A DNA stretch of 64,000 nucleotides from a virus (lineage: Duplodnaviria > Heunggongvirae > Uroviricota > Caudoviricetes), in the IMG/VR virus record IMGVR_UViG_3300028898_000252, positions 29,946-93,945 of that record. One strand, written 5' to 3'. Each line of letters starts with the position of its first letter. Within the stretch, counting starts at the first letter, position 1. The translations under genes and the position numbers were made by a program. Positions 4,951 to 41,171 of this stretch are shown here, piece after piece. The notes under the pieces are model-generated. The model was given only the letters and a program-made list of their open reading frames with translations. It ran no database searches and was not told the origin of the DNA.

Positions 4951-4980
4951 TTTATTACCATAAACTTTTAAAGAAATATC

Positions 4981-5037: not shown

Positions 5038-5046
5038 GCTTGATAT

Positions 5047-5121: not shown

Positions 5122-5134
5122 AGAAAAAAGTAGG

Positions 5135-5745: not shown

Positions 5746-5759
5746 ATTTTATTTGTTGG

Positions 5760-5828
5760 TGGGAACCGTTGGATTTGCACCAACATCTCAAGCTTGAGTA
5801 GCCTGTGTTTTGCTTAAACTAAATTCCC
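5760..5828 (-). tRNA. tRNA-like element, degenerate; anticodon loop TACTCAA lacks U33; T-loop TGCAAAT
   Basis: Acceptor GGGAATT/GGTTCCC. A 4-nt D-loop. T-arm GTTGG-TGCAAAT-CCAAC. The anticodon region can also fold as the CTCAAGCTTGAG palindrome. Paralog of 7492-7563. Confidence 0.3.
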
Positions 5829-6102
5829 TTGTTTTGTTTCTGTAAAACAATATCTTTTATTCTTTTGGCCTTTTCCCTGGATGCTCCATAAACAAAAAGA
5901 TAAAAAGAGTTGAAAATGGAGGAATCCAGTACCAAATTGATATTACTATGTTTATGCTTGCCGCGATAAATAAAGTCCAATATCTAAACCTTTTATCTTT
6001 CCATCTTTGAAGAGGACTGCTTACATCTATTGTTGTAATTTTTGGATGTTGCCGCGGAATTTCTATTTTATACGGTTTCCGATATGGATTATCCATTTTA
6101 TT

Positions 6103-6178
6103 TGGTGAACCCGACAGGACTTGAACCTGCAACATTTTGGCTGCAAACCAAACACTCTCCCAATTGAGTTACGAGCCC
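6103..6178 (-). tRNA. tRNA-Ala (anticodon UGC), G3:U70 present, CCA encoded
   Basis: Acceptor GGGCTCG/CGGGTTC carries the G3:U70 Ala identity pair. Anticodon stem TTTGG/CCAAA, loop TTTGCAG. T-arm GCAGG-TTCAAGT-CCTGT. Confidence 0.8.
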
Positions 6179-6183
6179 TTATT

Positions 6184-6708
6184 TTATTGGTAATATTCCT
6201 TTGGTAAACTTACATTTACATTTTTCACTTCAATAATTTCTTTTGCCAAGAAACTTGTATGGCGATAATAGTATACTAAATTACCCATTTCTAAGTCAGA
6301 CCTTTTTACCAAAGTTTTTTCATATTCAATTAATTTTTTAATGGTTGAAAAATTGTTTATATTTTCTTTTAATTCCTTTTGCAAAGTTTTAATAAAACCT
6401 AAACCAACATTAGGATTATTTAAAATATTCCATTTAGCTGTTTTAAGGTCAACTTTACCAGAATAACGATTGCGTTCTCTAAGTGTATAAAAGAAATATT
6501 CTCCATCATCTCTCTTTATACAACAATCTCCACGTCTATATTCATCTTCTCCTCCATAATACGGAAATACTTCTGTTTTAAGAGAATCATCATTGACATT
6601 TTCAATCAAAAAATCAAAACGATTTAAATGCCTTATCAATAATTGTTCAACTATGTCTGTTTCATAGTCAAAGCAATAAATCTCTCCTCCATAGTTTAAC
6701 TGGTACAT
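6184..6708 (-). CDS. hypothetical protein
   Basis: 174-aa ORF between tRNA-Ala and the next tRNA. Confidence 0.5.
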   Translation of the reverse strand: MYQLNYGGEIYCFDYETDIVEQLLIRHLNRFDFLIENVNDDSLKTEVFPYYGGEDEYRRGDCCIKRDDGEYFFYTLRERNRYSGKVDLKTAKWNILNNPNVGLGFIKTLQKELKENINNFSTIKKLIEYEKTLVKRSDLEMGNLVYYYRHTSFLAKEIIEVKNVNVSLPKEYYQ

Positions 6709-6733
6709 CTTTATCTTTTCTTGAGGAATTTAG

Positions 6734-6804
6734 GAGTCAGGAATGGAATCGAACCATTGACCTCGCACTTCCACAGCACGGCTCTACCACTGAGCTACAC
6801 GACT
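6734..6804 (-). tRNA. tRNA-Pro-like (anticodon UGG), imperfect
   Basis: Canonical D-arm GCTC-AGTGGTA-GAGC and T-arm AATGG-TTCGATT-CCATT. The acceptor has one mismatch. The anticodon loop TGTGGAA has G at position 33. There is no spacer nucleotide 26. Confidence 0.4.
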
Positions 6805-6818
6805 CATATAAACACCAA

Positions 6819-6876
6819 GAAAGCAAGAAAACTAGTTTTTTCACCCTTTGAATTTTTAGAAGGAAGTTTTCTTATG
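6819..6876. repeat. tRNA-spacer inverted-repeat element, copy 4
   Basis: agcaagaaaactag ... tagaaggaagttttcttat, lying between tRNA-Pro-like and tRNA-Glu. Confidence 0.6.
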
Positions 6877-6886
6877 GCTTGGTGCT

Positions 6887-6963
6887 TGGTGATCCCAATG
6901 AGATTTGAACTCATATTTCTCATTCTGAAAAAATGGTAGCCTAAACCGTTAGCTGATGGGACC
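6887..6963 (-). tRNA. tRNA-Glu (anticodon UUC), CCA encoded
   Basis: Acceptor GGTCCCA/TGGGATC. Anticodon loop TTTTCAG on a 4-bp stem with one C:A mismatch. T-arm ATGAG-TTCAAAT-CTCAT is perfect. Confidence 0.7.
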
Positions 6964-6982
6964 ATAATAAAACATACAAACG

Positions 6983-7225
6983 AGGAAAGCAAGAAAACTA
7001 GTTTCATTCACATATTGATTTTAGAAAGAAGTTTCCTTATATTGTTCTCCAAAACTTACTCAAAACCATTTCTGATTTTAATGTTTGGTTCCTGCTTCTC
7101 AGACAAGCTGATTATTTCCCAAAAAGGAAATAATGAACTCTCATCTCCACAGGCTTTTGATTCGAAAGTTTTCATTCGAATCGGTTTCCGCGGAACCCGC
7201 AGTACCTTTTAGCGGAGTATGCGAG
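6983..7225. repeat. segmental duplication unit B (paralog of 5455-5700)
   Basis: See unit A. It ends at the 3' end of tRNA-Asp. Confidence 0.6.
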
Positions 7226-7284
7226 AATTGAACTCGCGACGCTCGGATGACAACCGAGTGTTATGACCATTTAACTAATACTCC
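7213..7284 (-). tRNA. tRNA-Asp (anticodon GUC)
   Basis: Acceptor GGAGTAT/ATACTCC is perfect. D-arm GTTA-AATGGTCA-TAAC. Anticodon stem CTCGG/CCGAG, loop TTGTCAT. T-arm GCGAG-TTCAATT-CTCGC. Confidence 0.8.
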
Positions 7285-21964: not shown

Positions 21965-22840
21965 TTAAATTTCGATGATTGAAATACTTTTTTCTGGGCA
22001 ACCATACTCAGATGGGCCAGTATAACAACAAAGATTTTCAAGCGGCTGATATTCGGCCTTGTCGTGAGAATGACCACAAAACAGTTGAAACTTTATTTCT
22101 TTGTTTTTTGCCGCCGTTTCCAAAAGCATGTCTCCAAAAAACTTTGAACTAAAACATGGCAACCATTCCTCGTTTGATATAACTCCTTTATGAGTTGAAA
22201 GTTCTCTAAATGGAGGAACGTGAGTTAGCACAATTATTTTTTCTGGAGAGTACGCCGCGACTCCAAAATCAATATCATCTTTTACTTGTCTTGCCGCAAC
22301 TTTAGACAATCTCTTGCATTCTTCTCGCAAAGCAGGAATAGATTTCATTCTAAGTGAATTCAATTCTTCAATAATGTAATAATCGTTCATGTTAACCGTA
22401 GAAGATAAAAATGGAGAATATTCTCCATCATACCAACCATCAGATCCAACAAACAAAGTTTTTGTTGAAGAATCGTAATAAGATTTATTTGTCAGATAGT
22501 GCAAAGTGTTTTTAAATTTCTTTTGTGAAGTTAAAGTTTTAATCTCGTTGTTCACTTTAGAGAAAGATGAATGATAATAATCGTGGTTGCCCAAAATGAA
22601 AAATAATTTCTTTTGATGTTTTTGAAACACATTTCCCATATACTCAATATGAGATTGGATAAATCTTCCAGATGAAATATCTCCAGTTAACAAAACATGT
22701 TTGGCTTCTGTAACAAGAATTTTCTTAAGGAAACTATCAACTTTTGCAAAATGATCCTTTATCATTGCTTCTTCGGTATCGAAAAAAGCAGGAGAGAAAA
22801 GAAAATCTAGGTGAGTATCTGTTATGTGGAGATATTTCAT
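21965..22840 (-). CDS. calcineurin-like metallophosphoesterase
   Basis: All five motifs are present: ITDTHLD (DxH), LLTGDIS (GD), ILGNHDY (GNHD), LTHVPP (H), FCGHSHD (GHxH). Confidence 0.8.
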   Translation of the reverse strand: MKYLHITDTHLDFLFSPAFFDTEEAMIKDHFAKVDSFLKKILVTEAKHVLLTGDISSGRFIQSHIEYMGNVFQKHQKKLFFILGNHDYYHSSFSKVNNEIKTLTSQKKFKNTLHYLTNKSYYDSSTKTLFVGSDGWYDGEYSPFLSSTVNMNDYYIIEELNSLRMKSIPALREECKRLSKVAARQVKDDIDFGVAAYSPEKIIVLTHVPPFRELSTHKGVISNEEWLPCFSSKFFGDMLLETAAKNKEIKFQLFCGHSHDKAEYQPLENLCCYTGPSEYGCPEKSISIIEI

Positions 22841-22854
22841 CTGAGGTCCTGTTT

Positions 22855-23304
22855 CTAGTTTTCTTTTATTTCTTCTTTATTGTTTAACAAAAGTTTCCAG
22901 TCTGCTGATCTTTCTACTGTTTTAATTTGGTTAATGATTTCTTTCGAAGATTTTTCTGCTGTTATCCAAACGGGTAGCTCTTGCTTTTTCGGTTCTCTTT
23001 TAACCGAAAGGAAAACTTCTTTGTTTGTTTCGATTTGAGCTATTGAGAAAATTTTATTAACTCCTTCACTTGGAGAAGTTGGGCCAATTCCTTTTACTGT
23101 TGACTGCATGTCTTTAACAAAATAATTTTTTCCATCTGAACCTTCGAATATAATATCTGTGCCGCCGAATCTGCCGCGGCCAACTAAAGATATCTTTTTG
23201 GTTAACTTGATTTCTTTTGGCTCTCCAGCGAATTTAACAGAAAAACTAGATTTAGACTTTAGTAACTTTAAAACTTCTTTTGCTGTTCTTATCGTTATAC
23301 TCAT
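22855..23304 (-). CDS. hypothetical protein
   Basis: 149-aa ORF. It ends in TAG; readthrough would add only 5 codons before a TGA. Confidence 0.5.
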   Translation of the reverse strand: MSITIRTAKEVLKLLKSKSSFSVKFAGEPKEIKLTKKISLVGRGRFGGTDIIFEGSDGKNYFVKDMQSTVKGIGPTSPSEGVNKIFSIAQIETNKEVFLSVKREPKKQELPVWITAEKSSKEIINQIKTVERSADWKLLLNNKEEIKEN

Positions 23305-24666: not shown

Positions 24667-25239
24667 ATGAAAAAATACTTTTGCTTTGATACAGAAACAG
24701 GTGGTCTTTCAGAAAGAACAAGTTTGTTAACCCTATACGGGATTATAACAGATGAAAATCTAGAACCCGTAGATTCTATTAGTTTAAAACTAAAACCTTC
24801 AGACGGGGTATTTCTTGTAGAAGGACAGGCATTAGAAATAAACAAAATTAATTTAGATAAACACTCCAGGGTTGCTGACACTTATGAAGTTGGGGCAAAA
24901 AAACTAAAAGATTTTTTGTCAAGACATGTAGAAAACCATACGAGAAAACTTGATATTATTGGCCAGAACGTTATAGAGTTTGATATTCCAAGAGTTAAAA
25001 ACTTTCTCTTGTCTGACGAAGAATTCTCTTTTTATTTTTCGAGAGAAACCAAAGACACAAAGGTGCAAGGAATATTTCTAAAAACACTTGGAATAATTCC
25101 TGGAGATGTTAACTCGTCATTGATAACCCAGCTTAAATTCTTTTTTCCAGATTTAAACCTTGATGGGCACCACGATGCAAAATGGGACACCGAGCACACA
25201 TTAAAACTCTATAAGAAACACGTTTCTATTCTAGAATAG
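24667..25239 (+). CDS. DEDDh 3'-5' exonuclease (DnaQ-like); possible TAG readthrough extension to 25572
   Basis: Exo I CFDTETGGL. Exo II IIGQNVIEFD. Exo III HHDAKWD. The stop is TAG at 25237-25239. The downstream ORF 25273..25572 lies in the same frame with only 11 sense codons between. Confidence 0.75.
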   Translation: MKKYFCFDTETGGLSERTSLLTLYGIITDENLEPVDSISLKLKPSDGVFLVEGQALEINKINLDKHSRVADTYEVGAKKLKDFLSRHVENHTRKLDIIGQNVIEFDIPRVKNFLLSDEEFSFYFSRETKDTKVQGIFLKTLGIIPGDVNSSLITQLKFFFPDLNLDGHHDAKWDTEHTLKLYKKHVSILE

Positions 25240-25547
25240 AGAACAGGTGGTTATTGCCTCTTTACGGAGAAATTGGCGAGCTGTAAGGTGCGGAGTATGT
25301 CAAGCCTAGAACTCCACGATCTAGAATTTGTTTTGGTTCCGCAATCAAACTCCAAAACCAATAATGGCATTGAACAATTTAATGTACTTTTGGAAAATAA
25401 ATTAATTTGTTCGACAATTGAATTGGATGGTAAATGGATCTTGGTTGATACCTTAACGGGGAGAAGTGAAAAGTTTGACTTGCAAGAAAGTCTAGAGAAT
25501 CGAATTCTCGAACTCGCAAACTCCTCAAAGAAAGGAAATCAAAAAAA

Positions 25548-25898
25548 ATGCTTGACACATCTTCTCTCATAAAGGTTGATCCAAGGGGACTAAACACAGA
25601 AAGTTATGATTTAGACTTAATCACAAGTAAAACGTTTTCAAGTGTCCTTTCTGGTCATGCCGCCTCGCTCAAACTTCAAATTGATATTGACCATAAACAA
25701 AATCATGTTGCTTTTGTGGTTGAAGGAAAACCAATTTTGGGTGAACATATGTTAGGTAAAGAAGTTGTTGCCGCGACTTTTATTCCAACAGCAAATGCTT
25801 TGGAGCATTGGAAACTAATCGTTGAAAGACTTATCCACGCTTGGGATTTGATAGCGGCTCCAATTCAAACAAAAGAAGTTCTCAAAGAGAAACTCTGA
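25548..25898 (+). CDS. hypothetical protein
   Basis: 116-aa ORF. Confidence 0.45.
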   Translation: MLDTSSLIKVDPRGLNTESYDLDLITSKTFSSVLSGHAASLKLQIDIDHKQNHVAFVVEGKPILGEHMLGKEVVAATFIPTANALEHWKLIVERLIHAWDLIAAPIQTKEVLKEKL

Positions 25899-25916: not shown

Positions 25917-26294
25917 ATGGAAACAAAGCTGTCAAAAACTCTGATCGCTTTTCTGAATAAATTCCAGAAAGAAATCGAAAAAGGTCTCCATGTGTACGGA
26001 TACAAAGCAATACACTTATCAACAAAAGACCTGAAGAATTTCCACGATATTCTTGAAGAGATTAAAAACTTTTTTTCGGAGAAAGAAATAAGGTGTGAGT
26101 TTACACCTTCTGATAATTTCATTTCATTTTGCTGGGTAGTGCCTGCGAATATTGCTCGTAAAGATGCCTTTGAAAACACACAAGGAACTAATGTTACCGA
26201 AAAACTTTCATATTTTAAAAAATATGAGACGCACGAACGACCAAACAAACAAATTCCTCGGGATGTGTGCCTTGTGCGTTTTGGAATAGGATGA
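25917..26294 (+). CDS. hypothetical protein
   Basis: 125-aa ORF. Confidence 0.5.
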   Translation: METKLSKTLIAFLNKFQKEIEKGLHVYGYKAIHLSTKDLKNFHDILEEIKNFFSEKEIRCEFTPSDNFISFCWVVPANIARKDAFENTQGTNVTEKLSYFKKYETHERPNKQIPRDVCLVRFGIG

Positions 26295-26303
26295 ACTAAA
26301 AAA

Positions 26304-26726
26304 ATGGCGAAAGTAGAAATCGTAAAACAAGACTTATTTGATGCTTCAAACCTTGTAATAGGTCACGGAGCAAACACAAAAGGTGTTATGGGTGCAGGTA
26401 TAGCTAGAGTTTTTAGAAAGCTATACAAAAACAATTACATTGCTTATCTTGAATCTTGTGTCGCAGGGACATTTTGTCCAGGTGGAATTCTTATTGTAAA
26501 AGAAAAAGAAAGACTGATTGTAAACATTGCATCACAGGATTTCCCTGGTCCTTGTGCAAAACTTGAATGGATTGAACAAGGATTAGCTAAGTGCGCGGCA
26601 AATGAAATTAAATCAATTGCTCTTCCCTGGATTGGGTGTGGAATTGGTGGACTTAAAAGGGAAGACGTTCAAAAAGTTTTAGAAGATTCTCCTCTCGATT
26701 ATATTAAAGTTTGCGAAGTTGACTAA
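26304..26726 (+). CDS. macrodomain protein, DarG/TARG1-like (ADP-ribose hydrolase family)
   Basis: GHGANTKGVMGAGIARVF matches the NTxGVMGKGIA motif. IALPWIGCGIGGL matches the IAxPxIGCGLGG motif of the TARG1/DarG macrodomain clade. 140 aa. Confidence 0.75.
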   Translation: MAKVEIVKQDLFDASNLVIGHGANTKGVMGAGIARVFRKLYKNNYIAYLESCVAGTFCPGGILIVKEKERLIVNIASQDFPGPCAKLEWIEQGLAKCAANEIKSIALPWIGCGIGGLKREDVQKVLEDSPLDYIKVCEVD

Positions 26727-26757
26727 CTGACCAACTCTCTAAAAAGGAAGAAATGAA

Positions 26758-27672
26758 ATGAACCTAAAATCTCAAAAAGAGCTACACGTTGAATTTCTTC
26801 CTTTTCAAAAACTTATAGACTATATTAAAATCGGCGATGCTCTTGGAATGGGATTTGAGTATACTTCAGATAAATTTATAAAAGAAAATCTTTGGAAAGA
26901 AAATACTTTGCCAAAATTTATTCAACATCCATATTGGGCAACCCTTACCCCAGGAATGTATACAGACGATTCTCAAATGAGTATTGCACTTATTAAGTTA
27001 ATGTTAGAAGAAGAAACAACTGAATGGTTTGATGATCGAGTTGTCGGAAGATACTTTCTTTCTGAATTTAAATCAAGCCCTAGACAGGGATATTCGACTG
27101 GTTTGTATAAAGTTTTGTCTACTTCAAAAACAACAAATGAATTTTTGGAACAGATTGCCGCGTTTGGAAAGTCTTCAAAAAATGGCGGCTGTATGAGAGC
27201 TGTCCCAATTGGTTTATTACCTGATTTGGAAATGGTAAAAAAATTTGTAAGATTCCAAGCGGAAACAACCCATTCAGGAACAGGCGTCGATGCAGCAGAA
27301 ATGATTGCTGTTGCGGCATTTGGATTGAAATATAAACTAACAGAAAAAGATAACAAAGTTGATGTTTATGGTTGGGTGAAAAATAACACTTCTTATTTTC
27401 CAGAAATTATCAAAGAACTTAAAAGAGTTGAAGGCTCAAATAATCTCGGTTTATTAACTTCAATTTCAGTGCTAAAATTATTTAGTGAATTTGATTTGAG
27501 GTTAGGATTACATGAACTGATAAGAAGGTGTATTCTTTTAGGTGGAGACACAGATACGGTTGCCGCGATTGCGGCGGGGTTATATGGATGTTGGATACTT
27601 TCAAAAAGTAAAAAACAAAGAAGGGTTTCTTATATAAAAGAAATTAAACCATTGATAAGGTTTGTAAAATGA
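26758..27672 (+). CDS. ADP-ribosylglycohydrolase (ARH/DraG family)
   Basis: GDALGMGFE. YTDDSQMSIAL. GGCMR. GGDTDTVAAIAAGLYG, the classic ARH metal-binding motifs. Confidence 0.85.
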   Translation: MNLKSQKELHVEFLPFQKLIDYIKIGDALGMGFEYTSDKFIKENLWKENTLPKFIQHPYWATLTPGMYTDDSQMSIALIKLMLEEETTEWFDDRVVGRYFLSEFKSSPRQGYSTGLYKVLSTSKTTNEFLEQIAAFGKSSKNGGCMRAVPIGLLPDLEMVKKFVRFQAETTHSGTGVDAAEMIAVAAFGLKYKLTEKDNKVDVYGWVKNNTSYFPEIIKELKRVEGSNNLGLLTSISVLKLFSEFDLRLGLHELIRRCILLGGDTDTVAAIAAGLYGCWILSKSKKQRRVSYIKEIKPLIRFVK

Positions 27673-27756
27673 TTACAACTATCGACATACTTTTATGCGG
27701 AATGTTTTCGACACTTGGTTCGCTGTTAATTTTGACACATAAAACACTCAAATAAC

Positions 27757-28338
27757 ATGACTACAACTACACACCAAACAAACGAAGAAAACCTATTGCA
27801 AGAATTTGCCGAATTTAGAAAAGAAGAAGCAATTGAGCTGTTGAAAAATTTATTTAAAGCTTATTTTGCCGCAAATAAAAACTATACTTTTGTTGTTGTT
27901 GAGCATAATAGCCCAAAAGATAAAATAAAATTAAAATTCTTTTCTGTTGATCTGGAATCGGAAATGGAAAAAAATTACTATTATATTTCAGATAAAATTG
28001 GGGATAGGCATTTCGCTGCCGATACCTCGGATGAGGTAATTCAACTTCTTCATCCATTCAAACCTGAATCAGTTGAGATTTCTATTCCGCATTATTTGCT
28101 CGCGGAGCCAACAAAGTTTAAATCTAGAACTTGGATAAATTTCCTAAGATATGGGAGGACTTTTTTCCAAAAAGGAAAAGTTATATCTCCGTATAGAAGA
28201 CTTTCTCATAAAGGTGATGGATTAGATATTTTTGTAGATCATAACAGCCTGCTAACTGCTTTTACAGATAATGGATCAATTTTTGATAATAAAGGAAAAT
28301 ACTATAGAGGAATAGATTATGTCAAACTCTCTACCTGA
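27757..28338 (+). CDS. hypothetical protein
   Basis: 193-aa ORF. Confidence 0.5.
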   Translation: MTTTTHQTNEENLLQEFAEFRKEEAIELLKNLFKAYFAANKNYTFVVVEHNSPKDKIKLKFFSVDLESEMEKNYYYISDKIGDRHFAADTSDEVIQLLHPFKPESVEISIPHYLLAEPTKFKSRTWINFLRYGRTFFQKGKVISPYRRLSHKGDGLDIFVDHNSLLTAFTDNGSIFDNKGKYYRGIDYVKLST

Positions 28339-28891
28339 AACAAAACTAAGTTTGGAAGAAATAGAAACTGTTAAAGAAATTAAAAAAATAAAAGAAATGG
28401 CAGATGATCTTATTAAAAACACAGTTAGAATGGTTTTTGATAAAAAACCAAAATTAACATATCTTTCCCTTTCTCATTCTCAAAAATATTATTCTTTAAG
28501 TGTGTTAGAATCAGAACTTTCTATGGATCAAATTATAGATCTCGCAATTGAAGATTTGGGTACATATCCATGTAGGAAATACAAAATTGCCGATCCTAAA
28601 ACCACTAGAACTGATGAGATGAAAATTCAAGACTATAAACTATTATGTAATCGTAGAACCGATCCACCTACCACTTATATTGATATAGAAAATTATTTTA
28701 AATGGACTCAAATTAATCCAAACAATAGATCTCTTTCCGAAAAGAACTTTCCAAAAAAAGATGGGTATGACTTATTTAAGTTGTTTAATACCGAACTAGC
28801 AGTCTTTTCTAGGATTTCAGAATTAGACCACTTGGTTTTTGATAGAAACCTAAATACAATAGATTTAAAACTTGTGGTGGAAAAACTATGA
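28319..28891 (+). CDS. hypothetical protein
   Basis: 190-aa ORF. Overlaps the upstream gene by 20 nt. Confidence 0.5.
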   Translation: MSNSLPETKLSLEEIETVKEIKKIKEMADDLIKNTVRMVFDKKPKLTYLSLSHSQKYYSLSVLESELSMDQIIDLAIEDLGTYPCRKYKIADPKTTRTDEMKIQDYKLLCNRRTDPPTTYIDIENYFKWTQINPNNRSLSEKNFPKKDGYDLFKLFNTELAVFSRISELDHLVFDRNLNTIDLKLVVEKL

Positions 28892-29508
28892 TCGACCAAG
28901 AAAACACATTTTCAACAGACATTGAACAACAGTTGAACCTGTCTATTTTAGACATAAAAAATTTTGCTAATACAGCAGTTTCTAAATATCTAGATGGAAT
29001 CTTCGAACTGAATCCAGATATTCAATTTATCTATTTTTTATTAGATGGCGATTACGACGAAGAAACAATATCAGTCTATTTGATAGAATCTGAGTTTGAA
29101 ACAATAGTAGATGAATGTTTTACTGAGTTTAAAAGAAGTTTTGGTTCTAGAAGAACAAGCAAAGATTTTATTACAATAAACTGCCAACACCCTCTTTCAA
29201 AAGAAATTCATAAGTTTTGGTATCCAGTTGCCCTTCATGAGTTATATGATGGAATTTTACCAATTCCAGTTGAAAATATAATTTCACGTTTAAAATACGA
29301 ACTTCGTACTCCTAGTAAAAGAGAAACTCATCACGATGATGGTTTAGATATTTTAAAACAAAGGGCAATAGAAATAAAAAAAATACTTGATTTTACAAAT
29401 ACTGGATATGAAACTTTTTACCATAGATCTGGAAAACAATACTCTGGATTTTCTTACGAGATTGGCCCAACCGTTAAAGTTAAAAACTTTGGAGTTAAAA
29501 AACTGTAA
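28888..29508 (+). CDS. hypothetical protein
   Basis: 206-aa ORF. 4-nt overlap with the upstream gene. Confidence 0.5.
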   Translation: MIDQENTFSTDIEQQLNLSILDIKNFANTAVSKYLDGIFELNPDIQFIYFLLDGDYDEETISVYLIESEFETIVDECFTEFKRSFGSRRTSKDFITINCQHPLSKEIHKFWYPVALHELYDGILPIPVENIISRLKYELRTPSKRETHHDDGLDILKQRAIEIKKILDFTNTGYETFYHRSGKQYSGFSYEIGPTVKVKNFGVKKL

Positions 29509-29540
29509 ATCCATTCAAACAAAACGAAAGGAATTCTAAA

Positions 29541-29678
29541 ATGGAATATGAACATAACAAGGAGTCTCCAAAAACAATCTCCGAGGTTGTTATTGGACTA
29601 ATGACAGGAACTATTGCGATTGGAATTCTTTGTGTATTATATATTCTTGTAAAACTTGCGAAAGCTGTATTCCTATGA
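29541..29678 (+). CDS. small membrane protein, 45 aa, not in the ORF track
   Basis: MEYEHNKESPKTISEVVIGLMTGTIAIGILCVLYILVKLAKAVFL. Its TGA stop overlaps the ATG of the next gene. Confidence 0.3.
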   Translation: MEYEHNKESPKTISEVVIGLMTGTIAIGILCVLYILVKLAKAVFL

Positions 29679-30124
29679 AAGAAACTTTTTCTGTTTCTGT
29701 AACAGGTCACCGCGATTTGTTTCACGATGAAAAAGAAATAGAAAAAAAGTTTTTGAATTTTATTGATATTCAAAAAGGGTTAAATCCCGACAAAGAAATT
29801 GTTGTAAACACAGGAATGGCAGTAGGATTTGATCTTCTTGTTGCCGAGATTTGTCTAAAACAAGGAATAAAATATAACGCCATATTGCCTTTTGAAGATC
29901 ATCTTAAAACCAATGAAATCTTTTGCTTGTTAAAAGAAGCGGCAAACAAAGTTGTGGTGGTCTCAGAAGGACCATATGCGAAATACAAATATTTTATAAG
30001 AGATGTTTGGTTGGTTGATAATGCAAATGTCTTATTTGCATACTTGATTAAACCAGGAAAAAGTGGAACACGATTAACAGTTGAAGAAGCAATAAAAAAG
30101 AAAAAAGAGGTTATTTACTTCTGA
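29675..30124 (+). CDS. SLOG/YpsA-like (DUF1273-like) protein
   Basis: N-terminal MKETFSVSVTGHRDLF and TGMAVGFD resemble the YpsA/DUF1273 SLOG family. The track start 29630 is probably too early. Confidence 0.5.
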   Translation: MKETFSVSVTGHRDLFHDEKEIEKKFLNFIDIQKGLNPDKEIVVNTGMAVGFDLLVAEICLKQGIKYNAILPFEDHLKTNEIFCLLKEAANKVVVVSEGPYAKYKYFIRDVWLVDNANVLFAYLIKPGKSGTRLTVEEAIKKKKEVIYF

Positions 30125-30309
30125 TGAAAACAATTTTTAAATTTATAATAATTTTTTGTTTGGCAACGCTTTTCAATTTATTACTTGCCCTTTTTGGACA
30201 CGTTTATTTTAGATTTGATGTTATTAATTCCTTTATCGCTTTGATATTATTGGAAATGGTTTTTTTGTTTTATCAAAAAGAAATGGAAACTGTATATCAT
30301 GGAAAATAA
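30124..30309 (+). CDS. small membrane protein
   Basis: 61 aa with two hydrophobic helices. Confidence 0.35.
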   Translation: MKTIFKFIIIFCLATLFNLLLALFGHVYFRFDVINSFIALILLEMVFLFYQKEMETVYHGK

Positions 30310-30511
30310 TTCAAAAGTAAAAGGATTATATCGGGTTATTTTTACAGAAAAGTCTACAAAGAAAAAAAACATTATTGATGTTTTTGCTGTTGATAAAACA
30401 ATGGCAATAGACATTGCAAAAAACGAACTCTTTGACGGAACAGTTTTTATTGCAAAAGGTTCTAATCTTTCTGTTTCTGTTAAAGAATTAACAATCGACA
30501 AAGCTGATTAG
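30299..30511 (+). CDS. hypothetical small protein ending in a TAG-TAA tandem
   Basis: 70 aa. TAG at 30509-30511 is immediately followed by TAA at 30512-30514. Confidence 0.4.
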   Translation: MENNSKVKGLYRVIFTEKSTKKKNIIDVFAVDKTMAIDIAKNELFDGTVFIAKGSNLSVSVKELTIDKAD

Positions 30512-30537
30512 TAAAATAAACAAAGGAACAAAACACA

Positions 30538-30927
30538 ATGACTCACTAGGTAAAAAATAAACTATATGTCGTAACAAGAGAAGACCTTGGACTTCAATAT
30601 CAAATTCCACAAGTGGCACACGCTGTGGCAGAATTCGCACTAAGAAATAAAATAAAGTTTGAGGAATGGAATTCTGGTGGTTTGGGATCTTTGGTAGTTG
30701 TTGCCGCGAAAAACGAAGAACAACTATTTCAATTTAAAGCAAAACTAGAAAAAGAAAATCAAATTTATTATGGATTCTATGAACCAGATATTGGTTATAG
30801 TTTGACTGCTTTAGCAATAGAACCATCGGATAAAGTAAAGAAACTTTGTTCGGGAATGCCTTTAGCGGGCAAACTTTCAAAAGAAACACTAAACCTAAAA
30901 TTAATTTTGACATAGTTGATAAAATGA
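30538..30927 (+). CDS. Pth2-like peptidyl-tRNA hydrolase with in-frame TAG at codon 4 (and TAG at 30913)
   Basis: ATG(30538) ACT CAC TAG(30547) GTA AAA AAT AAA CTA TAT GTC GTA ... gives MTH*VKNKLYVVTREDLGLQYQIPQVAHAVAEF, matching the Pth2 N-terminal strand and SHA motif. No alternative start codon lies between the TAG and the conserved strand. If TAG at 30913 is read through, the gene ends TGA at 30925-30927 in an ATGA overlap with the HD gene. Confidence 0.55.
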
Positions 30928-31316
30928 TGGAAACAGAACAAGCAAAAGATGTTTCTATCCTTCAGCATGGATTACAAGTTTGTGATAAACTTTTTAATTT
31001 AATAATTCCTGCACTTAACTCTGATGTTACTGAAATCAAATTTCCTAATTGGTTTATCGAAAATAAAAGATTTATTCTTGAAAATCTTCCTTCTGAATAT
31101 ATTTTAAGAAAATATGCCATTTTTCATGATGTTGGAAAACCTTATTGTTTAGAGCACGACGAAGAAGGAAAAAGACATTTTCCAAATCATGCTGAATACT
31201 CTTTCCAAAAATATTTGGAGTTGTTTCCAAATGAAAAAGAGATAGCTGAGTTAATAAGAAACGATATGGTCGTTCATATTTTAAAAGATCATGGAGTTGA
31301 AAATTTTTCAAAATAA
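30924..31316 (+). CDS. HD-domain phosphohydrolase
   Basis: AIFHDVGKP and HFPNHAE are HD-domain His/Asp motifs. The start was reassigned to the ATG at 30924. Confidence 0.65.
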   Translation: MMETEQAKDVSILQHGLQVCDKLFNLIIPALNSDVTEIKFPNWFIENKRFILENLPSEYILRKYAIFHDVGKPYCLEHDEEGKRHFPNHAEYSFQKYLELFPNEKEIAELIRNDMVVHILKDHGVENFSK

Positions 31317-31474
31317 AAACTGTATAACTCATTTGGTTGTTGGTCTAGCTGAGATTTACGCTAATGCTGAAATGTTTGGTGGGGTCGAGTCGGAATCTTT
31401 TAAGATCAAGTATAAGCAGCTCGAACGAAGAGGTGGTGCAATTATCTCTGTGCTAAAGCAGAAGAGATAACGCG

Positions 31475-31503
31475 TTGACAGCTTCGCGGAGGTTGCTTAC
31501 ACT
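31475..31503 (+). promoter_or_regulatory. sigma70-type promoter for the suppressor tRNA
   Basis: -35 TTGACA (31475-31480), 17-nt spacer, -10 TACACT (31498-31503). The tRNA 5' end at 31510 sits at the predicted start site. Confidence 0.6.
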
Positions 31504-31509
31504 TCTCGC

Positions 31510-31581
31510 GTTTCGCTAGTTCAGCGGTAGAACGGCGGGCTCTAAACCTGCAAGTCATAGGTTCGATTCCTATGCGGAGCA
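31510..31581 (+). tRNA. amber suppressor tRNA (anticodon CUA, reads UAG)
   Basis: Acceptor GTTTCGC/GCGGAGC with two G:U pairs. D-arm GTTC-AGCGGTA-GAAC. Anticodon stem GCGGG/CCTGC, loop CTCTAAA with U33 and A37. T-arm ATAGG-TTCGATT-CCTAT. Discriminator A. No CCA encoded. Confidence 0.8.
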
Positions 31582-31610
31582 CAAACAAAAACATAAAAAG
31601 GAAAACAAGA

Positions 31611-32525
31611 ATGCAAACAAGACTCTTCTGTGGTTTGGCGATTGCTGTGTTGGCTGCCGCGTGTGAAACAGTATCTCCTGGGGAAGTTGCCGTTTTAGTT
31701 GATACTGGAACAGTTAAAGGCGTATATCCTCCAGGACTTTATTACGATGGCCCAATGATGGAATTTCACAAACTTTCAACGAGAGCTCAATCATTTGATA
31801 TGATTGGTGCCCCAACTCAAAATCAAAACCATGAACGTTCTGGTGAAGGTACTGTTACTGTTTTAACTCGGGACCAATTAAGTGTTGGTCTCGATTGCAC
31901 GGTTCAATTTCACTTAAACAGCGACCACGCCTTACCTGTGTTTATTAAGTTTGGCGAAAACTATGCACAAACAGTTGTTCACACTCCTGTCAGAGCTGCG
32001 GTAAGGGATAGCGCAGGTAGGTTTAACGCTCTCGATCTTTCAAACCGAAGAGAAGAGTTACAACAAACCCTCGAATTAGAAATTCGAAATAAGATTCATA
32101 CACTGTTGTCTCAGCAAAGAGTTTCAACAAATGCGATCATCTTGGATTCTGTTTTGATTCGAAATATTGATCTACCAAATTCTCTCGATGAAAGTATTGT
32201 GGCATTGCAGCGAGAAAGAATGCAAACGCAACAGAGACAACAAGCTGCCTTAACCGCGCAGCAAGATGCTGTGCGGCAAATGGCAGACATTCGAGGACAA
32301 TCAGAACGAAATATTTTAGCAGCGGAAACTGCCGCTAGAACAAGACGAATCGAATCAGAATCTATTGCCGCGGCAAACAGAACAATTGCCGCTTCACTTA
32401 CTCCAGAACTTTTGCGTCTTCGAGCAATCGAGGCACAAAAAGAAGTCTTGGGAAGTAATCAGACTCGAACGGTATTTATGCCTCCAAATATGTCACTTTT
32501 CAACCTTGGAAATATCCAACAATAA
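31611..32525 (+). CDS. SPFH/band-7 (HflC/K-like) lipoprotein, GC-rich gene
   Basis: Lipobox LAAAC after a signal peptide. The motif run GEVAVLVDTG..V.G.Y.PGL.Y..P, ...TRDQL.V.LD..V.FHL and ...VRAAVRDSAG fits an SPFH domain. GC content is much higher than the neighbouring genes. The track start 31572 overlaps the tRNA and was moved to 31611. Confidence 0.7.
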   Translation: MQTRLFCGLAIAVLAAACETVSPGEVAVLVDTGTVKGVYPPGLYYDGPMMEFHKLSTRAQSFDMIGAPTQNQNHERSGEGTVTVLTRDQLSVGLDCTVQFHLNSDHALPVFIKFGENYAQTVVHTPVRAAVRDSAGRFNALDLSNRREELQQTLELEIRNKIHTLLSQQRVSTNAIILDSVLIRNIDLPNSLDESIVALQRERMQTQQRQQAALTAQQDAVRQMADIRGQSERNILAAETAARTRRIESESIAAANRTIAASLTPELLRLRAIEAQKEVLGSNQTRTVFMPPNMSLFNLGNIQQ

Positions 32526-32544
32526 CAAGAAAGAAGGAAAGAAA

Positions 32545-32943
32545 ATGGAAAACAACGAAACCCAAACAGTCGAACAAACTCCAGCGCAAACAACCGAAGC
32601 GGTTCGCCGCTTTTATATGCGCAGCGGAAAGCGCACCGTAACCGTCTCCTACAGAAGAACCGAAGGAAACAAATACGAATATGCTTTTTCGGCAAACCGC
32701 GTTACAACGGGATCAAATACCGCTGTTGACCTTTACAACAAGAAACTTGGCAAGGAAATTGCCGAAGGTCGCCTTTCCAGCGGGCGACATTGTTTTCAAA
32801 TCGAAGTCAAAGACATGAAAATGATCCATGTCGAAATTGCCCAACAAATGGCTGAAAACACAACCAAAGAAGGAACCAAGGAATTGGTTCCAAAACCAAT
32901 CAAAACTGTTGCGCGAGACTATCTTGCTTCGCACAAAAAGTAA
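32545..32943 (+). CDS. hypothetical protein, GC-rich
   Basis: 133 aa starting MENNETQ. The track start 32365 is an artefactual extension overlapping the SPFH gene. Confidence 0.5.
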   Translation: MENNETQTVEQTPAQTTEAVRRFYMRSGKRTVTVSYRRTEGNKYEYAFSANRVTTGSNTAVDLYNKKLGKEIAEGRLSSGRHCFQIEVKDMKMIHVEIAQQMAENTTKEGTKELVPKPIKTVARDYLASHKK

Positions 32944-32987
32944 TCGAAAATTACTCGCGGAGCAAACCAAAAAGGCTGACTGACAAT

Positions 32988-33530
32988 GTGTTGGTCGGCC
33001 TTTTTGACTTTAAGGAGCAGAAAATGAAAACCCCATACCGAAAAAATGAATTGCTTATGGTTCCAAAGTCAAAAGAATCGCACAACTATTTTTGTAAATG
33101 GTTTGGTTGTAGAATAAGTAAACAAACAATTCCAACAGGAATTTATTTGCTTCAACTTAAAGAAAAACAATTTGTTTTTTCTTTCCAAACTTGTGCAATA
33201 TGTGGAAGAGAATATGCAAAACCATTTCATTCAAATGAGTTTATTCAACTTTTTCATTATAAAAATTCTTCAAATTGGAAATTTGTAAAATTTGATTACA
33301 AAGCCGATGATATTGTATTGCTAACGAAAAATAACAATTATGATGAATATGAAGCTGAAGTGAGACATATTTCTCATGTTTCAGAGATAAAAAATCTAGA
33401 ATTTAATCATTTTTGGTTTAATATTCTTTGCGCAAACATTGGATGCAACTATCAAAATTTTGTTAATGAATATGAAATTGTTTTAATGAAAAAATGTAAA
33501 CGGTGCGAAAAATTTATTCAAGAAAAATAA
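32988..33530 (+). CDS. hypothetical Cys-rich protein
   Basis: 180 aa with several CxxC pairs (CKWFGC, CAICGRE, CKRCEKF). Confidence 0.5.
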   Translation: MLVGLFDFKEQKMKTPYRKNELLMVPKSKESHNYFCKWFGCRISKQTIPTGIYLLQLKEKQFVFSFQTCAICGREYAKPFHSNEFIQLFHYKNSSNWKFVKFDYKADDIVLLTKNNNYDEYEAEVRHISHVSEIKNLEFNHFWFNILCANIGCNYQNFVNEYEIVLMKKCKRCEKFIQEK

Positions 33531-33546
33531 AAATAGAAGTTTTAAA

Positions 33547-34182
33547 ATGAAAACCATAAAACTGAAAAACAATGAATTGATTCCTGAATACTATACAGGA
33601 ATTGTTGAATGGGAACCTGGAACAAAATGTTGGTTCAAAGAAGGAAAAAGACATAGAATAGATGGACCAGCAAACGAATACTTTGACGGATCAAAAGAAT
33701 GGTGGATTGAAGGAAAACTTCACAGAATAGATAGCCCCGCTGTTGAATATGCAGATGGAACAAAATGTTGGTTCAAAGAAGGAAAATATCATCGAACAGA
33801 TGGTCCTGCTGTTGAATATGCAGATGGAACAAAACAATGGTGGGTTGAAGGGAAACTTCATAGATTTGATGGTCCTGCTATTGAATGGGCAAATGGATCA
33901 AAATATTGGTATAAAGATGGATTACTTCACAGATTCGATGGTCCTGCTTGCGAATATAAAGATGGATTAAAAGAATGGTATGTTGATAATAAACTCTATT
34001 CCACTTTTGAATTGGAAATCTATGTCGAAAAACTTATTTTCCTCGGGAAAGAAAAAGGCAACCATAACCTGTGTTGGTTAAAGTTTTTAACAGAAAATCA
34101 AGGAATCAAAGAGTTCCCTATTATTTCAGGAATGGAAAAAAATTTAATATTTAAAGAAATTTTCGTTTACTTGGAAATATAA
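33547..34182 (+). CDS. MORN-like repeat paralog family protein (5 repeats)
   Basis: Tandem 23-aa repeats WFKEGK.HR.DGPA.EY.DGTK plus the C-terminal module IFLGKEKGNHNLCWLKFLTENQGIKEFPIISGME. Confidence 0.7.
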   Translation: MKTIKLKNNELIPEYYTGIVEWEPGTKCWFKEGKRHRIDGPANEYFDGSKEWWIEGKLHRIDSPAVEYADGTKCWFKEGKYHRTDGPAVEYADGTKQWWVEGKLHRFDGPAIEWANGSKYWYKDGLLHRFDGPACEYKDGLKEWYVDNKLYSTFELEIYVEKLIFLGKEKGNHNLCWLKFLTENQGIKEFPIISGMEKNLIFKEIFVYLEI

Positions 34183-34377
34183 AAAATGAAAACTTTCTTC
34201 GTTATAGTTGATGATAAACCAGATTCTCAAATACAAACAAAGAATGTGTTTGAAGGATATAAAGAAGTTTTAAAAAAAGAAACAAAAGGTAAAATTCAAC
34301 TTATTGAAAAATCTTATTTTTTGGTGTGGTCTAAACAAAAAATAAAATAACAAAAGGATATAAACAAAAAAACAAAA

Positions 34378-35046
34378 ATGACAAATGCGATGTTGGTGTT
34401 AAAAACAAATAATTCAAAACTTGGTGGTGTTGCCGCGACTTATAGTTCAATTGATTCTTCTTGCCCGACTAGTTGCGCTTTAAAAGATAATGGATGTTAT
34501 GCTCAACTTGGTTTTGTTGGAATTCATACATCAAAACTAAATAAAAAGAAATCAACTCCAAGAGAAGTTGCAAGAGAAGAAGCAAAACAAATTAAACAAG
34601 CTATTAAAGAAGAAAAGAATACAAAACCATTGCGGTTGCACGTTGCAGGAGATTGCCGCACAAACGAAGCAGCAGCCATATTAGCCGAGGCAACAAAAGA
34701 ATGGGGCTATCCAGTATGGACTTATACACACGCCTGGAAAGATGTTTCTCGTTCTAGTTGGGGCAATAAGGTTTCTGTTCTTGCCTCGGTTGACAACATA
34801 AAAGAAATAAAATCGGCAAGAAGAAAAGGTTATGCTCCTGCTATCATTGTTGATAAATTTTTATCAAAAAAAGCATATGAGTTTAATGGATTTAAATTAA
34901 TTCCTTGTCCAAATCAAACTCATGAAAATATAACTTGTGAAAAGTGTAAACTTTGTTGGAACGATAAAAAACTTAAAACTCTAAATGCTGTTATTGGATT
35001 CGAAGCTCATGGTGCAAAAAGAAAATCTCTGCCAGTGATAAAATGA
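34378..35046 (+). CDS. hypothetical protein with the N-terminal Cys motif SCPTSC...GCYA
   Basis: 222 aa embedded in the MORN array. Not a MORN paralog. Confidence 0.5.
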   Translation: MTNAMLVLKTNNSKLGGVAATYSSIDSSCPTSCALKDNGCYAQLGFVGIHTSKLNKKKSTPREVAREEAKQIKQAIKEEKNTKPLRLHVAGDCRTNEAAAILAEATKEWGYPVWTYTHAWKDVSRSSWGNKVSVLASVDNIKEIKSARRKGYAPAIIVDKFLSKKAYEFNGFKLIPCPNQTHENITCEKCKLCWNDKKLKTLNAVIGFEAHGAKRKSLPVIK

Positions 35047-35453
35047 AAACAAAAGAAGACACAATAAAGATTATAGAATCTTCGGATGGAACAAAACAAT
35101 GGTATAAAGAAGGAAAATGTCATCGAGAGGATGGACCCGCGATTGAATGGGCAGGAGGGGCGAAAGAATGGTATATTGGAGGAAAACGCCACAGAATAGA
35201 TGGACCAGCTTTTGAAAATCCAGACGGAACAAAAGAATGGTGGGTTGGTGGAAAAGAATACTCGGACACAATTTATGTAAGAAACAAAATTTTTCTTGGA
35301 AAAGAAAAAGGAAAGTTTGGGATTGAGTGGTTAAAGTTTTTAACAGAAACAGGAATTGAAGAATATCCTCTTATTCCTGGTATGAATTATGAATTTGTTC
35401 AAAGATATGACCTCCAATCATTTTTAACTACGCAGGAGAATGTTTTAAAATGA
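35043..35453 (+). CDS. MORN-like repeat paralog family protein
   Basis: Repeats WYKEGKCHREDGPAIEW and WYIGGKRHRIDGPAFEN plus the LKFLTETGIEEYPLIPGM module. ATGA overlap with the upstream gene. Confidence 0.7.
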   Translation: MKTKEDTIKIIESSDGTKQWYKEGKCHREDGPAIEWAGGAKEWYIGGKRHRIDGPAFENPDGTKEWWVGGKEYSDTIYVRNKIFLGKEKGKFGIEWLKFLTETGIEEYPLIPGMNYEFVQRYDLQSFLTTQENVLK

Positions 35454-35884
35454 AACATCTTAAACTAAAAGATAATGAAAAAATTCCCAAACATTTTACA
35501 GGAATTGTTGAATGGGCAAGTGGATTGAAAGAATGGTTTAAAAAAGGAAAACATCATCGACTTGATGGACCTGCAATTGAATGGGTAAATGGAGATAAAC
35601 AATGGCTTAAAGAAGGAAAAACTCATAGAGTAGACGGACCAGCTATTGAACTTTCAGGTGGATATAAAGAATGGTGGATTGATAATAAATCAATAAAAAA
35701 AGAAATCGATATTTCAAATAAAATTTTTCTTGGAAAAGAAAACGGAAAGTATAAGATTGAGTGGTTAAAGTTTCTAACAGAAACAGGAATTGAAGAATAT
35801 CCTCTTGTTCCTGGTATGCCTCCTTATCAATTTAGAATTTTTAAAGACATATCTCTCGACGAACTCTTAAAAGTAGGTGTTTGA
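35450..35884 (+). CDS. MORN-like repeat paralog family protein
   Basis: Same repeat and C-terminal module. ATGA overlap. Confidence 0.7.
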   Translation: MKHLKLKDNEKIPKHFTGIVEWASGLKEWFKKGKHHRLDGPAIEWVNGDKQWLKEGKTHRVDGPAIELSGGYKEWWIDNKSIKKEIDISNKIFLGKENGKYKIEWLKFLTETGIEEYPLVPGMPPYQFRIFKDISLDELLKVGV

Positions 35885-36495
35885 TGGAAACAATTGATCT
35901 ATGGACAAAAACCACACAATTTCCTAAAAACTTTACAGGAATTGTTAAACGTGAAAACTTTCTTGAGATTTATTATAAAAATGGAAGTATTCATCGTAAA
36001 GATGGCCCCGCTTATATATCAAAATATATGTACAATAATCTAAAAAATTTTACTTATATTTGGTATAAAAAAGGAAAAAAACATAGAATTGGTGGTCCAG
36101 CGGTTGAAATTTGGGATGGTTCAAAAGAATGGTGGGTTAATAATAAAAAACATAGAATAGCTGCTCCTGCGGTTGTTGGAGTAGATGGATATAGAGAATG
36201 GTGCATTAATGGAAAATGGCACAGAACAGATGGGCCAGCTATTGAATTTGAAAACGGAGATAAATATTGGTATTTAAATAATAAACTCTGTTTTGAAAAA
36301 ACGGACATACCTATTCTTTTAAAAAAGAATATGTTTCTCAATATGGAAAGAGGAAAATATGATTTGTTTTGGTTAAGGTTCTTAACAGAAGACCAAGGAA
36401 TAAAAGAATTTCCAATGATTCCTGGAATACGTGAATTCATGTTGTCTATGGACTCTGAATTAAAAGATTATTTTGATGAGTGTGGATGGGTATAA
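35881..36495 (+). CDS. MORN-like repeat paralog family protein
   Basis: Four repeats plus the LRFLTEDQGIKEFPMIPGI module. ATGA overlap. Confidence 0.7.
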   Translation: MMETIDLWTKTTQFPKNFTGIVKRENFLEIYYKNGSIHRKDGPAYISKYMYNNLKNFTYIWYKKGKKHRIGGPAVEIWDGSKEWWVNNKKHRIAAPAVVGVDGYREWCINGKWHRTDGPAIEFENGDKYWYLNNKLCFEKTDIPILLKKNMFLNMERGKYDLFWLRFLTEDQGIKEFPMIPGIREFMLSMDSELKDYFDECGWV

Positions 36496-40927: not shown

Positions 40928-41171
40928 AAAAATACTTGAAATTGTAAAATGTATACAAGATCCAACACGGAACTAAAATTTAACTCTAAAGCAGATAAAG
41001 AAAGTTTCGTTGTTGGATTTTTGTCATTGTATCACGACAAATCTTGTTGTCTTGAACTTGTCAATAAATCCAACACGACTTTAGAAATTTGTTTTTTTGG
41101 TTCCTTAGATAAAAATTTATTACAAGAGATAGAAGAATTATATGGCAGTGTACTAGTATTTAATACAGACA

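Follow-up and report, generated by a model that had tools for sequence, protein, structure and literature searches.

Suppressor tRNAs of phages are currently explained as tools for genome-wide switching of the genetic code. In the crAss-like and Lak phages that use genetic code 15, many late genes carry scattered TAG codons and the code-change genes are written in the standard code, and it has been proposed that expression is gated by the code switch (Borges et al., 10.1101/2021.08.26.457843). Suppressor tRNAs, release factors and synthetases are the code-change genes of that preprint and of the theta-ribozyme paper, and peptidyl-tRNA hydrolase (Pth) appears in neither. The PTH2 family has been noted in jumbo phages, where it was discussed with regard to the repair of tRNAs and the rescue of ribosomes (Iyer et al. 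2021, PMC7824862). In the present work, we examine a Pth2-like gene at 30538-30927 of a 64-kb stretch of DNA from a virus of the Caudoviricetes (the whole stretch that was analysed, called the window below). The gene has an in-frame TAG as its fourth codon and lies close to an amber-suppressor-type tRNA, which in this case appears to be tied to one translation-related gene.

The arrangement resembles that of the code 15 phages in that a phage tRNA(CUA) would be needed to translate a phage gene with an in-frame TAG. It differs from it in that a single gene is concerned, the stop is fixed in the first codons, and other genes end in TAG. With the PTH2 of jumbo phages it shares the protein family, while the leader stop, the link to a suppressor and the fusion to an HD domain are not mentioned by Iyer et al. 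Suppressor-dependent expression of a phage gene is thus already known, but we have not found the Pth2 leader-stop arrangement described, and full-text searches of the literature returned no paper that links a phage Pth2 leader stop with a suppressor tRNA. Our preferred reading, which comparison of sequences makes probable, is that 30538-31582 constitutes a one-strand module of Pth2, HD and tRNA(CUA), in which the leader UAG would make the output of Pth2, or of the Pth2-HD fusion, depend on amber suppression. All coordinates refer to the window, position 1 being its first letter, and to the plus strand unless stated otherwise. The elements of the gene and of the tRNA are the following.

30523-30527, plus strand: Shine-Dalgarno-like AAGGA, 10 nt 5′ of ATG 30538, from direct reading.
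30538-30549, plus strand: leader ATG ACT CAC TAG (M T H, with UAG as codon 4), from direct reading.
30538-30915, plus strand: Pth2-like open reading frame (ORF), from ATG 30538 through UAG 30547 to TAG 30913, identified by Pfam PTH2 and by structure matches.
30559-30612, plus strand: conserved N-terminal strand and helix motif KLYVVTREDLGLQYQIPQ, continuing VAHA; wholly 5′ of GTG 30613 and kept in 44 homologues.
30775-30795, plus strand: FYEPDIG motif, where canonical Pth2 has D-A-G-x-T; E, P and T are shared by the whole family without exception.
31510-31582, plus strand: amber-suppressor-type tRNA, anticodon CTA at 31542-31544, loop C-U-CUA-A-A, found by ARAGORN and as an Rfam tRNA at 60.1 bits.

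The start of the gene reads ATG (30538-30540), ACT, CAC, TAG (30547-30549), and then GTA AAA AAT AAA CTA TAT GTC GTA ACA AGA GAA GAC CTT, so that translation from ATG 30538 gives M T H stop V K N K L Y V V T R E D L. The ORF track begins the gene at GTG 30613, which is the first canonical start 3′ of the leader TAG. An earlier note on this DNA had placed the start at ATG 30538 and a TAG at codon 4, with no other start between this TAG and the conserved strand. Direct reading and the mechanical ORF list confirm this, since neither gives an in-frame ATG, GTG or TTG between TAG 30547 and GTG 30613. The leader ATG ACT CAC TAG is identical in two close relatives, L030, an activated-sludge contig obtained by a metagenome scan and 98.4% identical to window 29925-33006, and L065, a Logan assembly of another run obtained via a protein search and 99.4% identical to window 28106-33807. 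As these are independent assemblies, a sequencing error can be dismissed as the source of the TAG at codon 4.

With the leader TAG filled in, the window protein scores 29.8 bits against Pfam PTH2 (PF01981), for which the cut-off is 23, and the L030 protein scores 31.1 bits. The alignment places protein residues 8-101 on profile positions 2-106 of 115. It spans the stretch 5′ of GTG 30613, and the strand encoded there therefore belongs to the domain. The best solved relative in a single-sequence search is the P. horikoshii Pth2 (1wn2), with KYKQVIVARADLKLSKGKLAAQVAHG aligned to KNKLYVVTREDLGLQY--QIPQVAHA, which identifies the same stretch as the strand and the helix motif with which the fold begins. 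When a profile of the 44 homologues is compared with solved Pth2 structures, 2zv3 is found at E = 6.7e-10 (positions 1-102 to residues 2-115) and the next structure at E = 1.8e-9. The match to the solved structures 2zv3, 1wn2, 1rzw and 1q7s extends from end to end and takes in the first strand and the Q..HA helix.

One option to be considered is that the protein starts at GTG 30613 and works without the first strand. This codon is the first canonical start past the stop, and database calls for several homologues (P0016, P0047, P0065, P0113) begin at the Val or Met of QVAHA, i.e. with the same truncation as in the window's ORF track. However, such a start would cut some 20 positions from the Pfam domain, among them the first strand and the conserved Q..Q..HA motif, and no Shine-Dalgarno-like motif was seen 5′ of it by direct reading. 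The lost stretch is, moreover, conserved as protein with synonymous changes in the DNA. Two relatives at 60% identity (L031, L032), for instance, begin ATG ATG TAG GTA and have synonymous changes through the strand. Most of the 830 homologous proteins collected by an exhaustive profile-free search match from query residue 3-4, which means that the homologues keep the N-terminal strand. A functional start at GTG 30613 is very improbable.

The active site is divergent. The canonical catalytic residues of Pth2, which we take to be the G-K Lys and the D-A-G-x-T Asp, are found in altered form: the Lys position is occupied by Gln or Tyr in the phage family, so that the canonical Lys is not retained, and D-A-G-x-T is replaced by E-P-D-I-G. 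The Asp of D-A-G-x-T aligns one position from the invariant E-P-D, and its acid is perhaps retained there. Compared with archaeal and eukaryotic Pth2, the phage protein thus gives a full-length match that includes the first strand and the Q..HA helix and lies above the Pfam cut-off, while it differs in these replacements, in its frequent fusion to HD and in the adjoining tRNA(CUA). We infer a divergent Pth2-type enzyme, with hydrolysis of peptidyl- or acyl-tRNA as its putative activity.

We now turn our attention to the leader stop across the family. The DNA of homologous loci was taken from IMG/VR, from JGI and European Nucleotide Archive (ENA) metagenomes and from the INPHARED phage collection, giving a first set of 45 unique loci and an expanded one of 109, which fall into 56 clusters when grouped at 60% identity. 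The expanded set leans to the leader-TAG clades, from which two thirds of its query alignments came (the 44-sequence alignment being too diverse to scan with), whereas the first set has no such bias. Many of the homologues are Pth2-HD fusions of 280-330 aa. A recurrent leader architecture was observed, consisting of an ATG, 0-9 further codons, an in-frame stop, and then 3-29 codons without ATG, GTG or TTG before the strand. It is present in 24 of the 45 loci of the first set, where the stop is TAG in 21, TGA in 2 and TAA in 1. In the loci with an ordinary start, the first upstream stop is a TAG in only 5 of 21, compared with 21 of 24 for the leader loci (Fisher p = 1.8e-5). In the expanded set, 68 of the 109 loci satisfy the strict definition of the leader (TAG 65, TGA 2, TAA 1), and a leader stop is present in about 32 of the 56 clusters. 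ATG NNN TAG is the form seen most often, with the TAG 4-7 codons 5′ of the strand Leu. The TGA leaders are those of L013 and L033/L034, and the TAA leader is that of L038.

The position of the leader TAG is kept across lineages down to about 30% protein identity, and in a neighbour-joining tree the leader stop occurs in several deep clades, and the branches with TGA or TAA fall within those with TAG. In the bodies of 26 leader-TAG genes, on the other hand, which comprise about 3,700 codons from the strand to the end, there is one in-frame TAG (in L046), and all 26 genes end at TAA or TGA. These comparisons indicate that the leader stop is conserved, selected and confined to the first codons, in phages that use TAG as a stop elsewhere. 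The suggestion of the earlier note that the complete enzyme can only be made if UAG is decoded is supported by this picture, as homologues retain the N-terminal strand and many of them carry a leader of ATG, a few codons and TAG.

Further indications that the TAG is translated in the family come from loci with additional stops. L052/L053 and L057 have two in-frame leader TAGs at a spacing of eight codons, and the peptide encoded in between is conserved (IEKEEYG, IEKQEHG). In L011 and L045 a TAG is found at the same place inside the domain. The codon that follows the leader stop begins with a purine in nearly all clusters and is mostly ATT, GTA or GTT. A purine after UAG favours amber suppression in E. 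coli.

These data also bear on the possibility that ATG ACT CAC TAG is a true mini-ORF, with Pth2 made by re-initiation or from a non-canonical start, or with the leader acting like a bar minigene of phage lambda. The lambda bar minigenes (AUG AUA UAA) are linked to Pth function. The likeness is that both are very short ORFs with a stop, connected with the biology of peptidyl-tRNA hydrolase, and the leader has the form of a minigene, i.e. a Shine-Dalgarno-like site, an ATG, 1-3 codons and a stop. In the mycobacteriophages Bxz1 and Myrna, a GTG even follows the TAG directly. The difference is that the frame here continues from the ATG through the TAG into a conserved domain in every leader locus, so that the leaders do not qualify as bar minigenes. 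Re-initiation is in addition difficult to reconcile with the codons GTA, GTT and ATT that mostly follow the TAG, and with L036 and L037, in which 21-29 codons after the TAG contain no canonical start at all. Neither the conserved peptide of the double-TAG leaders nor the switch to TGA or TAA within the tree, which fits matching suppressors, is expected for a mini-ORF, and we consider this explanation improbable.

The second element of the module is the tRNA. The tRNA(CTA) of the window has A as discriminator (A73), the pair G1-C72 and a short variable loop, and CCA is not encoded. Position 2 forms U2-G71 in the window and C2-G71 in L030, so that the pair is kept. Across the expanded set, a tRNA(CTA) lies within 3 kb of the gene in 72 of the 109 loci, and on the same strand in all 72. 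It is the sole tRNA of the stretch in 37 of these, and it is often located directly 3′ of the gene, at a distance of at most 150 nt in 16 loci. Of the 334 tRNAs found at the loci, 75 have the anticodon CTA and 30 the next most frequent one. All suppressor tRNAs of the loci have the loop U-CUA-A-A, and those of different loci do not form a single sequence family. The pairing with the nearby suppressor tRNA, to which the earlier note had drawn attention, thus appears meaningful, as tRNA(CTA) is the commonest neighbouring tRNA and is always encoded on the same strand. One clade has ordinary starts and yet an adjacent tRNA(CTA). At other loci, tRNAs with the anticodon TTA (two in L008; L008/L141) or TCA (L056) were observed. 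Ochre-type suppressor tRNAs would be unusual in phages.

The presence of a suppressor tRNA would also be expected if the phage simply used genetic code 15, in which case the TAG at codon 4 would be an ordinary sense codon without a special role. TAG is indeed a rare terminator in the window, ending 3-4 of about 95 genes. The window contains rIIA, radical SAM, HNH and ATPase genes and an array of 12 tRNAs, and no recognisable structural genes were found in its 64 kb. The test for in-frame TAGs therefore covers a stretch that seems to hold no late genes, and recoded late genes could lie outside. Among the real genes of the window, however, the Pth2 gene is the only one with an internal TAG. In the homologues, the TAGs are limited to the first codons and nearly absent from the gene bodies, and their place is maintained in distant relatives. 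Neighbouring genes end in TAG in 75 of 545 cases at the leader-stop loci (about 14%) and in 39 of 256 at the loci without a leader stop, which points to a gene-specific read-through and not to genome-wide recoding. The cultured carriers, finally, are read in the standard code. Of the characteristics of code 15 phages, the tRNA(CUA) is thus present, while the many genes with in-frame TAG are not found within the window and TAG is not avoided as a terminator. A genome-wide use of code 15, the table with which the earlier note had proposed to translate the gene, is not borne out, and we regard this alternative as quite unlikely.

Three other observations were considered in this context. The read-through of the TAG that ends the gene at 24667-25239 into the ORF at 25273-25572 is unsupported, as the only homologue is a near-identical ORF of 91 aa. 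Four TAGs 24 nt apart at 41082-41154 were considered as a repeat, but neither Tandem Repeats Finder nor direct reading gave one. The comparison of ORF coverage between code 11 and code 15 at the loci is uninformative, because the removal of any stop lengthens ORFs.

The leader-stop arrangement is also found in cultured phages, namely Acinetobacter phage ME3 (L064), Serratia phage BF (L062), Tenacibaculum phage pT24 (L063) and the mycobacteriophages Bxz1 (L060) and Myrna, all of which are treated as standard-code phages in public records. Serratia phage BF has the same M-T-H-TAG leader as the window, and ME3, Bxz1 and Myrna each have a CTA tRNA in the vicinity. The leader TAG has caused the gene to be missed or shortened in several of these records. 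That of BF has no coding sequence over the Pth2 gene, gp293 of pT24 is annotated from an internal start 27 codons 3′ of the point where Pth2 homology begins, and gp266 of ME3 is likewise annotated from an internal start. The arrangement would thus correct mis-annotated or missing genes in the BF, pT24 and ME3 records. In Bxz1, gp154 is annotated from the GTG right after ATG TAG, and the CTA tRNA is labelled "tRNA-OTHER". The arrangement is spread over many large phages in which TAG serves the other genes as a stop, and it might account for some of the solitary CTA or "tRNA-OTHER" tRNAs of standard-code phages.

In the window, the Pth2-HD gene is split, and the relevant features are the following.

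30905-30908, plus strand: T4 run, one T shorter than the T5 of L030 (missing after 30904); the frameshift parts Pth2 from HD, and L065 has the same.
30913-30927, plus strand: TAG TTG ATA AAA TGA in the shifted frame, from direct reading.
30924-31316, plus strand: HD-N ORF, 130 aa, with the metal-ligand positions H, HD, H, H, D, H, identified by HD homology.
31291-31470, plus strand: HD-C ORF, 59 aa, with the C-terminal helices LAEIYANAEMFGG...FKIKYK, its frame being that of Pth2; fused homologues, among them P0003 and P0047, align with it at their C-termini.
31310-31313, plus strand: A4 run, two A shorter than the A6 of L030 (missing after 31309); this second frameshift cuts the HD protein, and L065 has the same.

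The gene of L030 is a single ORF, in which ATG ACT CAC TAG is followed by 307 codons that encode the Pth2 domain and then the HD domain. The only two indels between L030 and the window in 3 kb both lie inside this gene, and they divide it into the Pth2 (30538-30915), HD-N (30924-31316) and HD-C (31291-31470) ORFs. As the 1-nt and 2-nt deletions sum to 3 nt, the last piece is back in the Pth2 frame. L065 has both deletions and no indel relative to the window, so that the deletions are real and not assembly errors, and the split into three ORFs is real in a sublineage.

The split accounts for the 3′ end of the Pth2 ORF. The earlier note had described a terminal TAG at 30913 followed by a TGA in an ATGA arrangement, and had suggested the TGA as the real stop. 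The codons are as described: if TAG 30913 were also read through, the ORF would reach TGA 30925-30927, which overlaps ATG 30924-30926 of the next ORF as ATGA. What does not hold is a conserved recoded stop. L030 has GAC ACA GTT GAT AAA ATG ATG in the region of window 30913-30927, one continuous frame from Pth2 to HD, and TAG 30913 and TGA 30925 therefore arose from the first frameshift. In the sublineage of the window, read-through could reach the ATGA overlap, but as a derived state. A similar configuration is seen on the minus strand at 22837-22857, where the ORF at 22855-23304 ends in TAG and is followed five codons on by a TGA (22839-22837), which forms an ATGA with the start codon (ATG 22840) of a metallophosphoesterase gene.

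The deletions raise the question of whether the gene is decaying to a pseudogene in this phage, its stops and frameshifts being functionless. No other indel occurs in 3 kb, and the HD part has a higher density of substitutions. The number of substitutions relative to the window is 49 for L030 and 33 for L065, and 25 of the latter fall in window 30942-31511, i.e. in the HD gene and the spacer 5′ of the tRNA, a clustering that suggests either recombination or a relaxation of constraint. Hardly any change separates the window, L030 and L065 in the Pth2 part and in the downstream Band 7 gene. The Pth2 part has 5 substitutions in 375 nt relative to L030 and 0 relative to L065, and about half of the changes in the HD part are third-position or conservative. 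All three pieces have retained an ATG and an open frame. The leader TAG is present in the intact, fused gene of L030 and across the family, and can therefore not be a product of decay. To a pseudogene as the explanation of the locus we give little credence.

The HD partner was characterized in the same way. Against Pfam HD (PF01966), with a cut-off of 22, the window HD-N scores 21.7, the L030 fusion 23.5 and L032 16.3 bits. There are 73 HD homologues, mostly stand-alone proteins of about 185 aa. Among 42 of the homologues, H18, H73-D74, H90, H94, D118 and H122 are invariant, which conforms to the HD metal-ligand pattern, and E148 and N152 are invariant as well. The AlphaFold model of the HD protein is of high confidence, with a pLDDT of 96.9. 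The best profile match of the protein is weak (E = 5.5e-4), to residues 262-377 of the A. aeolicus A-adding enzyme (3wfo-3wfs), and the best fold match by Foldseek is the same enzyme (probability 0.99, TM 0.47), with generic HD phosphohydrolases next among the matches. The likeness to the HD region of the A-adding enzyme lies in the motif HD(I/C)GKP...G(K)..F..H, which is aligned with the phage HD, while the phage HD differs from the class II tRNA nucleotidyltransferases in being a module of about 185 aa, stand-alone or fused to Pth2, without the nucleotidyltransferase head. The HD partner may thus be an HD phosphohydrolase related to the HD region of these enzymes. Because the Pth2 half and the HD half both match tRNA-end enzymes, the 3′ end of a tRNA is the putative substrate of both. 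We have also considered that HD removes a cyclic phosphate made by a ribozyme. This is unsupported here, since an Rfam search of 29500-33000 gave only the tRNA, and neither an HDV-like nor a theta ribozyme adjoining it.

Two promoter-like sites were found in the region of the gene and the tRNA.

30488-30517, plus strand: TTAACA, 18 nt, TAAAAT, ending 21 nt 5′ of ATG 30538; weak evidence.
31475-31503, plus strand: TTGACA, 17 nt, TACACT, near-consensus, ending 7 nt 5′ of the tRNA; both hexamers are kept in L030.

Such sites are no more numerous in the region than chance would give (13, compared with 9.3 expected from shuffling). The second site may drive transcription of the tRNA(CTA) with little or no 5′ leader.

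In the mechanism that we propose, translation would start at ATG 30538 and reach UAG at codon 4, and the complete Pth2 domain would be made only when the neighbouring tRNA(CUA) reads this codon. The amount of Pth2, or Pth2-HD, would then scale with the amber-suppression capacity, i.e. with the competition between the charged suppressor tRNA and release factor 1, and with the stop at the very start of the gene a failed attempt would cost only a peptide of a few residues. Because the leader stop is conserved and confined to the first codons, it would have a regulatory purpose and act as a gate or sensor, and we infer from the comparisons above both this purpose and the decoding of the leader UAG by this particular tRNA. 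As promoter-like sites precede both the gene and the tRNA, with the caveat about their number just given, the gate may sense the function of the tRNA rather than the timing of transcription. If this reading is true, the module is a naturally evolved amber-gated switch, which the cultured carriers make directly testable.

A comparable logic is known from prfB, the gene of release factor 2, which is autoregulated through an early in-frame UGA and a +1 frameshift and thereby senses its own product. In both cases, an early in-frame stop in a translation-factor gene would tie the output to the decoding of that stop, here conserved among the homologues, with the difference that read-through by a tRNA is proposed instead of a +1 frameshift. 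The direction of the loop could be of two kinds. Pth2 could clear peptidyl-tRNA by-products of the read-through or, by analogy with prfB, could exert negative feedback on the suppressor itself. The latter would amount to a closed loop in phages that otherwise keep to the standard code, in which the leader UAG measures suppressor activity and Pth2-HD deacylates the suppressor tRNA or works on its 3′ end. We put this forward tentatively, as a rather unlikely extension of the preferred reading. Equally tentative is the idea, drawn from the prfB-like logic, that such a loop would fix amber read-through at a low level and serve the phage as a homeostat.

Several points weigh against suppression as the switch of this gene. 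In a number of homologues, a canonical start lies at or just after the TAG, namely GTG in Bxz1 and Myrna, TTG in L001 and L005, and ATG in L040 and L051, so that suppression is not strictly required in these cases. A tRNA(CTA) was not seen within 3 kb in 5 of the 24 leader-TAG clusters, and at this distance BF and the L014 group showed no suppressor tRNA either. An efficient suppressor would, furthermore, extend the roughly 14% of neighbouring genes that end in TAG. Since Gln or Tyr stands in place of the canonical G-K Lys, the substrate may differ from that of the known Pth2 enzymes. Finally, with two frameshifts relative to L030 and more substitutions in the HD part than in its neighbours, some decay may have occurred in this particular phage.

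A few features of the surrounding DNA remain to be mentioned. A megablast search of window 26000-36000 against the phage collection gave no match. Two genes 5′ of Pth2, the ORF at 29630-30124 has a weak match to DprA (DNA_processg_A), with 19.5 bits compared with a cut-off of 29.6. Directly 3′ of the tRNA, at 31611-32943, lie a Band 7/SPFH gene (Pfam E = 5.5e-26) and the next ORF. The mechanical start of the Band 7 gene at 31572 overlaps the tRNA, and ATG 31611, which is the start called in L065, is likelier. The G+C content is 39-43% in the 31-33 kb bins, i.e. in the Band 7 stretch, which is the maximum of the window, compared with about 33% elsewhere. The 12 tRNA genes of the array lie on the minus strand at 923-7284 and comprise Leu, Gln, Lys, Thr, Met, Gly, Asn, two Glu, Ala, Pro and Asp. 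The array is thus on the opposite strand to the lone tRNA(CTA) and 24 kb away from it.

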